DNA from: a virus
Lineage: Duplodnaviria > Heunggongvirae > Uroviricota > Caudoviricetes
Length of the DNA stretch: 42,872 bases
Direction: 5' to 3' (one strand)
IMG/VR virus record: IMGVR_UViG_2718217859_000008
Coordinates: 1-42,872 of that record
Below, piece by piece: positions 23,604-24,700 of this stretch. The notes under the pieces were generated by a model, which did no database searches, had not been told where the DNA came from, and worked only from the letters and a program-made list of their open reading frames with translations. Every line of letters begins with the position of its first letter. The first letter of the stretch is position 1. The translations under genes and the position numbers were made by a program.

Positions 23604-23731
23604 GGATATTTATCAGGATTTATCGGTTCCGAATCCCTGGATATGTTAAGTCTTCAGCCCGCCAGTGGTGGGCACTGGTGTTTTACCTGATGGCTGAAAT
23701 ATATCTGACAATTCCCGTCGAGGATTTAGCA

Positions 23732-24046
23732 ATGTATAACGATGAACATAAATATACCGCCTGCATGCAGGCCATGAATGAACAATTTAAATCAGCATTC
23801 CTTAAACTCATTCAGCAAAACCACGAAGCAGTAAAATCCATTCAGGCTGAACCGTATGGACACCTCACACCACCAACTCTCGACATTATGTCCAGAATAT
23901 TAACACCAGCCATGCTTCTACGTCTGAAAGACAATATAAATGACTGGTTAAACGAAGAATTAAACTACCTTGAATGTGAGTGGGATCATCATTACGCCAA
24001 ATCACAAAAAGAACGCATCTTCCGTCGATTATCCGGCAACAGATAA
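23732..24046 (+). CDS. hypothetical protein (104 aa), antisense within the lysis operon
   Basis: ATG at 23732 with GAGGA 8 nt upstream; convergent with the 213-aa gene (stops 10 bp apart); no recognised family. Confidence 0.5.
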   Translation: MYNDEHKYTACMQAMNEQFKSAFLKLIQQNHEAVKSIQAEPYGHLTPPTLDIMSRILTPAMLLRLKDNINDWLNEELNYLECEWDHHYAKSQKERIFRRLSGNR

Positions 24047-24055
24047 CGAGCCAGC

Positions 24056-24697
24056 TTATATACGTCCTTTAAGATAAGTCAGTCCTGGATGAAACCAGTA
24101 AGCCGGCACTTTTTTAAAGGGTGGATTATCAAAATCACGAAGAAGAGCCTCCCGCACAACTGCATCCTTGTCCGCACCACTGGCCAGCGCTTCAATCTCA
24201 GCAGCTACCTGCAGATATCCCATGCAACGACCAATGCGCTTCATTAGTCCCTGCTTTTTATTGTTCTTCAGGTAATCAATGGCAAATTCAATGAGCGCCT
24301 CACTGTGCTGGTGCGATGCTGGTGTTACTTTTCCATCTTCACGGATCGTGATATTCCAGTCATCGCTTGTCACAATAAAAGATGGCCGATTATCCCCCCA
24401 TTCCTGGTCTTTATCCGGTGCAGACGCAATAAAATAACGTTTATTGCCTTCCTCTCCGGCACTTTTAACTGTAATGGAGTACTTTTCTGACAATGCGGTC
24501 GGTAAAAACTTTTCCTGCAAAATCTTCTCAAAGGTCCTGCGAGCAATTTTGATGCAATCATCGTAAAACGCTGCTTCCTGCTCATCGCGGCGTTTTTTTT
24601 CATCTTCAGAAACCATCAGCACCGACAGTTTTTTATTCAGTTCAGTGATTTCATTTTCCAGGCAACTTATGCGCTGATTCATTTCTTCATGGTTCAT
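24056..24697 (-). CDS. hypothetical protein (213 aa), coupled to the holin
   Basis: ATG at 24695-24697 is 3 nt after the holin stop, with GGAG upstream; N-terminal coiled-coil-like segment; no recognised family. Confidence 0.55.
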   Translation of the reverse strand: MNHEEMNQRISCLENEITELNKKLSVLMVSEDEKKRRDEQEAAFYDDCIKIARRTFEKILQEKFLPTALSEKYSITVKSAGEEGNKRYFIASAPDKDQEWGDNRPSFIVTSDDWNITIREDGKVTPASHQHSEALIEFAIDYLKNNKKQGLMKRIGRCMGYLQVAAEIEALASGADKDAVVREALLRDFDNPPFKKVPAYWFHPGLTYLKGRI

Positions 24698-24700
24698 CGT

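Follow-up and report, generated by a model that had tools for sequence, protein, structure and literature searches.

A probable HK97-type moron/reverse-moron gene pair, with an uncatalogued leader, at the holin-endolysin junction of a virus of the Caudoviricetes

Background

Morons are extra stretches of DNA, differing in G+C content, that lie between genes adjacent in related phages (Juhala et al. 2000, summarised in PMC3594210); a promoter and a terminator of their own and expression from the repressed prophage are further criteria (PMC3594210). In the record of phage HK97, gp23 is described as a 'reverse moron product' and is convergent with gp22, a 'moron product'. The counterpart in HK022 is gp22/gp23, and in ES18 gene 25 is convergent with gene 24, which encodes a DUF1327 protein. 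HK97 and HK022 have served as models for 25 years; our literature search found nothing usable on the reverse moron, on HK022 srb or on HK97 gp22/gp23. Here we describe two genes, p213 and p104, that fill positions 23604–24700 between the holin gene (S) and the endolysin gene (R) of IMGVR_UViG_2718217859_000008, a virus of the Caudoviricetes whose record of 42,872 nucleotides (nt) was analyzed at full length and is referred to as the window. They very probably constitute one copy of a modular accessory pair of lambdoid prophages, of the HK97 moron/reverse-moron type, that is lodged in the S-R junction and does not belong to the lysis machinery. Pairs of this kind are known already; what may be of wider use is the conserved, structured, uncatalogued leader platform that precedes the reverse gene, together with a consistent architecture of cargo and partner genes.

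Like p104, the reverse genes of HK97, HK022 and ES18 are found behind the same leader and promoter-like region, are directed against the late operon, and converge on (and often overlap) a small forward accessory gene. The forward gene of ES18, gene 24, belongs to the family of the longer homologues of p213. However, these three pairs are located between tail genes (I/J or M/L) rather than between holin and endolysin, their cargo proteins are unrelated to p104, and their forward partners are shorter than p213 and lack its C-terminal domain. In addition, copies of the platform elsewhere are flanked by an intrinsic terminator directed at the late strand. No such terminator is present at p104, where the start codon of R stands in its place, next to the promoter end of the cassette.

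Two further systems share the genomic position of the pair. In the Qin prophage of Escherichia coli K-12 the gene order is essQ-ydfR-rrrQ, and YdfR (P76160; DUF1327, PF07041), like p213, directly follows an S21-type holin and precedes a lysozyme. YdfR consists of DUF1327 alone, the domain found at the N-terminus of the longer homologues of p213. However, p213 itself lacks DUF1327, its coiled coil and C-terminal domain are absent from YdfR, and there is no reverse gene in Qin. In Stx2 phage 86, orf5 and orf6 represent the same pair between S and R. The orf6 product (Stx2-86_gp06) is 68% identical to p104, and the C-terminal part of the orf5 product (Stx2-86_gp05, 268 amino acids (aa)) is 81% identical to p213, although orf5, unlike p213, retains a DUF1327 N-domain and has no coiled coil. 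The annotation of both goes no further than hypothetical or YdfR family. The bor gene of lambda resembles p104 in being a small gene opposite the late operon in the lysis region that is regarded as prophage-expressed cargo, and a bor homologue is present in related loci. It differs from p104 in that it encodes a lipoprotein and is located after Rz, and in that it has no sequence relation to p104, no such leader and no convergent partner.

Organization of the locus

The two genes and their neighbors are arranged as follows, with strands given relative to the window.

24701..24907, minus strand: S21-type class II holin (pinholin family); PF04971, E = 4e-33; annotated as a coding sequence (CDS) by the Prokaryotic Genome Annotation Pipeline (PGAP) in an identical record
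24056..24697, minus strand: p213, probable forward moron gene, 213 aa; phrog_1085, E = 5e-101
23732..24046, plus strand: p104, probable reverse-moron cargo gene, 104 aa; phrog_1853, E = 8e-47
23720..23724, plus strand: Shine-Dalgarno sequence GAGGA of p104, read from the sequence
23070..23603, minus strand: lysozyme/endolysin R of the signal-arrest-release (SAR) type; PF00959; N-terminal hydrophobic stretch
22606..23088, minus strand: Rz spanin; PF03245
22647..22853, minus strand: Rz1, embedded in Rz

The ATG of p213 is located 3 nt past the TAG stop of the holin gene, as an earlier examination of the DNA without database searches (the sequence-only reading) had described. A GGAG is present inside the holin 3' end, and PGAP calls the same CDS. 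This start leaves p213 no room for a promoter of its own. The gene is read as part of the late operon, and its translation is probably coupled to that of the holin. On the other strand, GAGGA stands 7 nt ahead of the p104 ATG, and the p104 stop is 9 nt from that of p213, so that the two converge and p104 runs antisense to the late transcript on its way to R; here too the sequence-only reading, which had noted a good ribosome binding site, was accurate. The DNA of the lysis region is 100% identical to the chromosome of E. coli 08-00022 (NZ_CP013662), in which PGAP calls both p213 and p104 as CDS for a 'hypothetical protein', the latter from an earlier in-frame start. The G+C content is 39.7% in p104 and 43.9% in p213, compared with 54.6%, 53.2% and 54.5% in the flanking S, R and Rz. 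In K-12 DLP12 (essD-rrrD) and in Salmonella prophages S and R are directly adjacent, and the pair thus has both the position and the divergent G+C content of a moron.

The leader of the reverse cassette

We identified a conserved sequence that recurs upstream of p104 homologues in E. coli, Salmonella and other contigs, in which TCAGCC is followed by CGYCAGTG-loop-CACTGGCG. The elements of the window copy and of its surroundings are the following.

23619..23647, plus strand: putative sigma-70-type promoter, predicted; -35 TTTATC at 23619–23624 (weak), -10-like TATGTT at 23642–23647
23647..23734, plus strand: conserved 5' leader, reaching the p104 ATG from near the predicted start of transcription; covariance model R1, 51.3 bits, E = 1.5e-11
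23654..23659, plus strand: invariant TCAGCC, predicted 5' end of the transcript; complementary to GGCTGA at 23692–23697
23660..23680, plus strand: leader hairpin 1, CGCCAGTG-GTGGG-CACTGGTG; picked up by a generic scan as well
23692..23697, plus strand: near-invariant GGCTGA, the loop of hairpin 2 in most family members; conserved in 72–77 of 77
24050..24112, plus strand: possible terminator of p104, an imperfect hairpin with U6 inside the 3' end of p213; RNAfold -16 kcal/mol, z = -2.06; weak

The covariance model finds a single copy of the leader in the window, and there is no Rfam match to it at E ≤ 5 within 22400–25700. The same leader also occurs ahead of unrelated opposite-strand open reading frames (ORFs) in the S-R slot, and a pattern scan of IMG/VR recovered at least 120 viral contigs. 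Among the matches listed, a small ORF of 38–169 aa, mostly 65–105 aa, is located approximately 60 nt downstream of the leader; these cargo ORFs fall into at least 24 unrelated families, with p104 accounting for 13 of 112, and the flanking long ORFs are on the opposite strand by more than 3:1 in 109 of 120 loci and on the same strand in none. The insertion sites are between the tail genes J/I and L/M, near terminase or HNH genes, and next to R. We found the platform in HK97, HK022, ES18, HK633, mEp213, mEp043 and SPN3UB, and many of the convergent partners begin with MTLEQRVEALE (a coiled coil), contain a DUF1327-like domain, or both. When ten other cargo families were compared with PHROGs, seven matched entries of 'unknown function' and three had no match. 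A DUF1883 (PF08980) protein, found behind the leader in two loci (L138 4098–4388, minus strand, and L223), is the only cargo with a Pfam family.

The leader alignment (A5) from which the reverse-moron platform is defined contains 78 sequences, and pairing was counted over 77. The stem of hairpin 1 was part of the search pattern, and the 99.8% of paired cells observed for it reflects a stem fixed by that pattern; hairpin 2 and GGCTGA were not part of the pattern. Hairpin 1 contains a U-G wobble in 61 of the 77 sequences, which on the other strand would be a C-A mismatch, so that this hairpin works as RNA in the sense of the cargo. Hairpin 2 is 84% paired and shows compensatory double changes at five of its six pairs. 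In the window copy, RNAfold pairs UUCAGCC with GGCUGAA around hairpin 1. It is possible that the GGCUGA loop and the 5' UCAGCC form a pseudoknot or a long-range helix, a proposal based on complementarity without covariation. We considered two other roles for the hairpin. A terminator at 23657–23680 was dropped because most family members lack the U-run, and an element of the late strand was dropped because the U-G wobbles fit only the plus strand.

The putative promoter, spacer included, falls within an inverted repeat, CAGGAT...ATCCCTG. Throughout the family a -10-like pattern, T A W G K T, occupies positions -13 to -8 before CAGCC, with TG at -17/-16; T is found at -13 in 73 of 87 sequences, A at -12 in 85 and T at -8 in 74. 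This conserved extended -10-like element, 7–13 nt before the leader, would place the start of the transcript at about UCAGCC, near 23653 in the window. The reverse-moron platform is defined by TCAGCC, hairpin 1, a hairpin 2 with GGCTGA as its loop, a Shine-Dalgarno sequence and an ATG, and by a small ORF running against the late genes; the window copy conforms to this, although the stem of its hairpin 2 is degenerate.

A weak match to the leader model (26 bits; L264 4926–4990, minus strand) is located in the Rac prophage of K-12, between recT and ralR and directly upstream of the latter. It consists of UUCAGCC followed by a hairpin whose stem departs from the family consensus yet still pairs, and it has no hairpin 2. 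Either a distant relationship to the leader or chance may account for this match.

p104 is a coding gene

The p104 gene encodes a 12.4 kDa, soluble protein with five helices (AlphaFold2 pLDDT 85.6, pTM 0.79). Few gene callers report it. Our first search returned only 12 protein clusters, and it is unannotated in some records, as might be expected if the 104-aa ORF were a chance antisense ORF and the functional element were a non-coding RNA or DNA. We consider this highly improbable. Across variants that diverge by approximately 20% in nucleotides the ORF contains no indel or stop, substitutions are most frequent at third codon positions, then at first and then at second, a pattern that fits coding, and dN/dS is 0.22–0.56. 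The five other frames contain 5–10 stops each. A profile search found relatives of 38–48% identity in Salmonella and in unassigned contigs, and the ORF remains intact in other genera down to 38% identity. The confident AlphaFold2 model also speaks against a chance ORF. We conclude that p104 is a real coding gene under purifying selection. The model has no informative fold match, and no signal peptide or transmembrane segment was found in p104 by hydropathy; the protein reads as cytoplasmic.

p213 and the YdfR family

The p213 protein (24.5 kDa, pI 5.9) is soluble and has no transmembrane segment. Its maximum 19-residue Kyte-Doolittle hydropathy is 0.76, and that of p104 is 0.94, neither of which indicates a membrane segment, a SAR domain or a signal sequence; both proteins are mildly acidic. 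The protein begins with a coiled coil (about residues 3–64), followed by a beta-rich middle and a conserved helical C-terminal domain (about residues 105–213). This domain has the common pattern ...GRxMGxLQxAAE...DxPPxK...W..PG..Y.. and the invariant residues G156, R157, L162, Q163, A165, P193, K195, W201, P204 and Y208.

A protein search with p213 retrieved 189 clusters at E ≤ 0.001. The longer homologues, of 259–333 aa, carry an N-terminal DUF1327 (PF07041, 'YdfR family'), which is followed by a linker, a coiled coil, a variable beta-rich segment and the conserved C-terminal helical domain. By contrast, p213 begins at the coiled coil, aligns only with the part of the longer proteins that is C-terminal to DUF1327, and has no match to PF07041; it belongs to phrog_1085 and falls outside PF07041. 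Its N-terminus (EEMNQRISCLENEITEL) resembles, as judged by eye, the MTLEQRVEALE coiled-coil motif. The most remote relatives, detected in a profile search of 1.84 billion representatives, have only the C-terminal ~110 residues in common with p213. Nothing similar to the C-terminal domain was found in Pfam or the PDB, and the AlphaFold2 model, made from a shallow alignment of E. coli sequences only, is of low confidence (pLDDT 49). Judged by its sequence, p213 is a DUF1327-less member of a mosaic YdfR family and one variant of a general forward-moron lineage.

Neither p213 nor p104 has a significant match in Pfam, NCBIfam or PADLOC, sequence-profile searches of the PDB gave only chance-level matches to coiled coils (E ≥ 0.01), and the PHROGs to which they belong, phrog_1085 and phrog_1853, are both annotated as of unknown function. 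This agrees with the sequence-only reading, in which neither product could be assigned to a family.

The only experimental source on DUF1327 or ydfR that we found in the literature is a 2026 RNase E interaction screen (PMC13232886). In that work two-hybrid and co-purification assays showed binding of residues 1–72 of K-12 YdfR to the catalytic N-terminal half of RNase E, and YdfR co-purified with RNA (PMC13232886). Because p213 lacks the DUF1327 domain formed by residues 1–72, this link to RNase E and RNA is not transferable to it. The YdfR data are a lead for the forward-moron lineage, not evidence about p213.

The slot between S and R is a common hotspot

The sequence-only reading took the two genes for an insertion into a lysis cassette. 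The ydfR gene of Qin and orf5/orf6 of phage 86 occupy the same slot, Stx1, Stx2a and PhiR phages have other DUF1327 variants followed by other opposite-strand ORFs, and Stx2_95 has a full-length protein of 329 aa and no reverse gene. Part of the interval is matched in 957 of 5426 complete E. coli genomes, and the whole pair is carried by 92–95. We further retrieved 77 complete loci from IMG/VR in which a gene or genes (X) lie between S and R; since p213 was the query, the proportions in this set are no census. A YdfR-family gene is located between S and R in all 77. The claim that holin and endolysin genes are normally adjacent is only partly true for this type of cassette; it is correct for DLP12 and the Salmonella prophages but not for these loci. 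The slot behind S21-type holins is a common hotspot, not a rarity, and the ubiquity of the arrangement among related phages, which the sequence-only reading had itself named, together with neutrality, as an argument against its interpretation, is largely what we observe.

The p104 gene is present in 29 of the 77 loci, and two others have a different cassette. In the p104-deleted variants 36–42 nt are left between the p213-family gene, which is still located between S and R, and the R gene. These junctions are of two kinds. A 42-nt junction in which the last 13 nt of p104 (TTATCTGTTGCCG) are fused to the 23 nt adjoining the R start occurs in 14 loci (for example L028 and L037), and a 36-nt junction that still includes TTCAGCC occurs in 32 (for example L035 and L038). 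As a p104 remnant is found in them, the 14 junctions of the first kind are deletions, and we rejected the idea that p104 had been inserted into an empty site. Taken together, the sequences of both kinds of 'empty' junction point to recurrent deletion of the cassette rather than to repeated insertion.

Several related loci show further variation. One of several copies of the region in NZ_CP013663 (strain GB089) is split by IS1, as seen from two BLAST pieces with an IS1 transposase under the match. Stx1a phage Stx1_14040 contains an unannotated opposite-strand ORF of 233 aa behind the leader (31.8 bits; L003 2562–3263, plus strand; the same in L005), which overlaps approximately 250 nt of the 3' part of an annotated DUF1327 gene of 263 aa. 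The divergent tail of this annotated protein may be read-through into the antisense of a real reverse gene. In the parts available to us of a survey of Stx-phage lysis cassettes (PMC8136144) we found nothing on DUF1327 or on genes between S and R.

p104 and its partner domain are linked outside the S-R junction

The association of p104 with the C-terminal domain of p213 extends to other genomic positions, in loci that were retrieved with p213, p104 or the leader motifs as queries. Among 34 distinct genes of the p104 family, 33 are abutted by a convergent partner with a p213-type C-terminal domain, and the exception is a truncated copy; p104 is in turn present at 47 of 94 distinct partner loci. 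One partner of 297 aa (P0138, locus L129) faces a convergent 111-aa homologue of p104 (41% identity) at a gap of 0 nt, on a contig where the genes upstream are not lysis genes, and on a further contig the pair overlaps by 33 nt. L136 and L139 likewise have the pair away from the S-R junction. In Salmonella prophages (L131 and L133–135) the pair, of 262 or 254 aa and 105 or 106 aa, is located between Q or toxin-antitoxin cargo and the holin gene; S, R and Rz are adjacent in these prophages, and the holin is of a different family (PF16080). Thus p104 and its partner are a linked pair kept tail to tail in three genomic settings, and the position upstream of the holin in Salmonella indicates a mobile unit that is not tied to the holin-endolysin junction.

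In Salmonella and related prophages (L131, L134–L138), the opposite strand carries HicAB or ParE/HTH (helix-turn-helix) toxin-antitoxin cassettes in the interval from Q to the pair. Between the pair and the holin gene there is often a small DUF1327-like gene that stands by itself, for example at 4294–4536 of L136.

The Salmonella placement between Q and the holin also weakens any mechanistic link to lysis timing. According to such an interpretation, p213 and p104 would tune pinholin triggering or the release of the SAR endolysin, in the manner of antiholins, P1 LydB or the Mu lysis regulators. The start of p213 only 3 nt past the holin stop would suit this role, as would the YdfR-family gene that is always present between S and R in the E. 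coli loci retrieved, and where the pair is found elsewhere it is within approximately 1 kb of a cassette for a class II holin and a SAR-type lysozyme. However, neither protein has a transmembrane segment or a signal sequence, the holin downstream of the Salmonella pair is of another family, no gene separates S from R in DLP12, about half of the loci have lost p104, and the same types of reverse platform and forward partner are found between the tail genes of HK97, HK022 and ES18, far from any lysis genes. The lysis-timing modulator proposed in the sequence-only reading is thus unsupported, and we regard it as unlikely.

Alternatively, p104 alone might be a moron for lysogenic conversion or superinfection exclusion, comparable to bor or HK97 gp15, with p213 as an unrelated late gene that does no more than offer a place for insertion and an anchor for recombination. 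Compatible with this idea, a moron is by definition a prophage gene with independent expression (PMC3594210), numerous unrelated cargos are found on the reverse platform at a wide range of sites, and p104 alleles are swapped beside a constant partner. However, the same partner domain stands beside p104 at 33 of 34 loci, in three contexts and down to approximately 40% identity, which exceeds what would be expected of a mere landing site. In addition p104, which appears cytoplasmic and has neither signal peptide nor transmembrane segment, is unlike bor, gp15 and Cor. We consider this alternative improbable, if worth bearing in mind.

A toxin with its antidote, or an abortive-infection or defence pair, in which the convergent partner neutralises a toxic or effector protein by binding or by antisense RNA, would be consistent with a tail-to-tail pair that is conserved across genera and whose 3' ends abut or overlap, forcing the transcripts to overlap in antisense. 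The Salmonella neighborhood is rich in toxin-antitoxin cargo (HicAB, ParE), and in K-12 Rac the type I toxin gene ralR likewise has a leader-like hairpin upstream. However, no toxin-antitoxin, defence or anti-defence family is matched by either protein in PADLOC, Pfam or NCBIfam, and the genes are convergent, not co-directional as in type II systems. With no room for a promoter, p213 would be silent in the lysogen, a poor design for a defence gene, and p104 alleles can be replaced without replacement of the partner. Half of the loci retain the larger gene but not p104, and p104 is therefore no essential antidote. A toxin-antidote or defence function, the latter also raised in the sequence-only reading, is in our estimation a poor prospect.

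Expression of the pair

The account that we favor for p213 and p104 combines an accessory pair of the moron/reverse-moron type with autonomous expression and late silencing of p104, and as a whole it is rather more probable than otherwise. The interpretation offered in the sequence-only reading stands in part. The genes are accessory, their G+C content is low, S and R are adjacent in relatives, and the two are a linked pair; they are not rare, and neither a lysis nor a defence function is supported. That reading also suggested a pair placed where late expression is guaranteed, and for the 104-aa gene this does not agree with p104 being the cargo of a reverse cassette that has a promoter-like region and leader of its own and that is found equally between the tail genes of HK97, HK022 and ES18.

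We infer for p104 a promoter of its own, expression in the lysogen and, with much less assurance, an action on its partner. The reverse cassette would be transcribed autonomously from an extended -10-like promoter, and its transcript would begin near 23653 with a 5'-terminal stem-loop. Synthesis of p104 would then not depend on late transcription under Q and would most likely take place in the lysogen or at an early stage of infection. Late transcription arriving from the holin side would collide with the p104 unit and be antisense to it, such that p104 would be shut off as p213 is turned on. For this model of autonomous expression and late silencing we see the chances as evenly divided. The one-sided dependence, in which p104 is not found without the partner domain while the partner often lacks p104, fits a p104 that acts on or regulates the partner or its process better than it fits an essential antidote. 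That p104 acts directly on its partner is doubtful.

A number of observations weigh against this account. The promoter of p104 is read only from conservation and its -35 element is poor, a generic promoter scan called nothing at the site upstream of p104, and a terminator scan made no call, there being no clean terminator between p213 and p104. The stem of hairpin 2 is degenerate in the window copy of the leader. The locus frequencies are biased because the same proteins and motifs served as queries. In five loci (L020–L024) the p213 proteins are 91–92% identical but those of p104 only 47–50%; such swapping of p104 alleles beside a near-constant partner argues against a tightly co-evolving protein-protein pair, and the linkage may result from recombination within the conserved DNA on either side and not from co-evolution of the proteins. 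Finally, p213 may still have a role in late lysis, since in every context it is located in the late operon near lysis genes.

Other genes in the region

Cargo is also dense in the interval (25015–27876) that separates the Q-like antiterminator from the holin. This interval contains a truncated DUF1737 pseudogene (the N-terminus of a NanS-p-type esterase), a gene for an IraM-like anti-adaptor on the plus strand (25612–25947), a DUF3927 gene, TerB-family genes and a gene with an AraC-type HTH. Two small RNAs in the window match Rfam at the gathering level, STnc100 at 25992–26166 (minus strand, 93.7 bits) and the sok antitoxin RNA at 30528–30702 (minus strand, 110.6 bits); hokD is annotated in the corresponding part of NZ_CP013662.

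Implications

As an ordinary accessory pair in a common hotspot, p213 and p104 leave the understanding of lysis by pinholins and SAR endolysins unchanged. A more far-reaching proposal concerns the leader, with its 5' hairpin, covarying hairpin 2 and GGCUGA/UCAGCC complementarity. It would be an undescribed riboregulatory platform that drives hypervariable small prophage proteins opposite the late operon, the DUF1327 or 'MTLEQRVEALE' coiled-coil partners would be matching late-expressed regulators, and the pair would be a lysogeny-to-lysis switch for the cargo. Partners made upon induction could, for instance, hand the reverse mRNA to RNase E, the cargo that is switched might include exclusion or anti-defence factors, and p104 together with the C-terminal domain of p213 would be one co-adapted combination of cargo and partner. 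We put this forward as speculation with little likelihood of being correct in full.

The wider pattern is that a single promoter-leader platform, absent from Rfam, is shared by at least 24 unrelated families of small ORFs and is almost always antisense to late operons. Its hosts are lambdoid phages of E. coli, Salmonella and their relatives, in which the cargo usually adjoins, 3' end to 3' end, a forward gene for a DUF1327 or coiled-coil protein. Either the covariance model or the pattern CAGCCYGYCAGYG-N-CACTGG provides a sequence handle with which such cargo genes can be collected. The collected cargos could be studied as a class for roles in exclusion, anti-defence and regulation, as could the relevance of the link between YdfR, RNase E and RNA.

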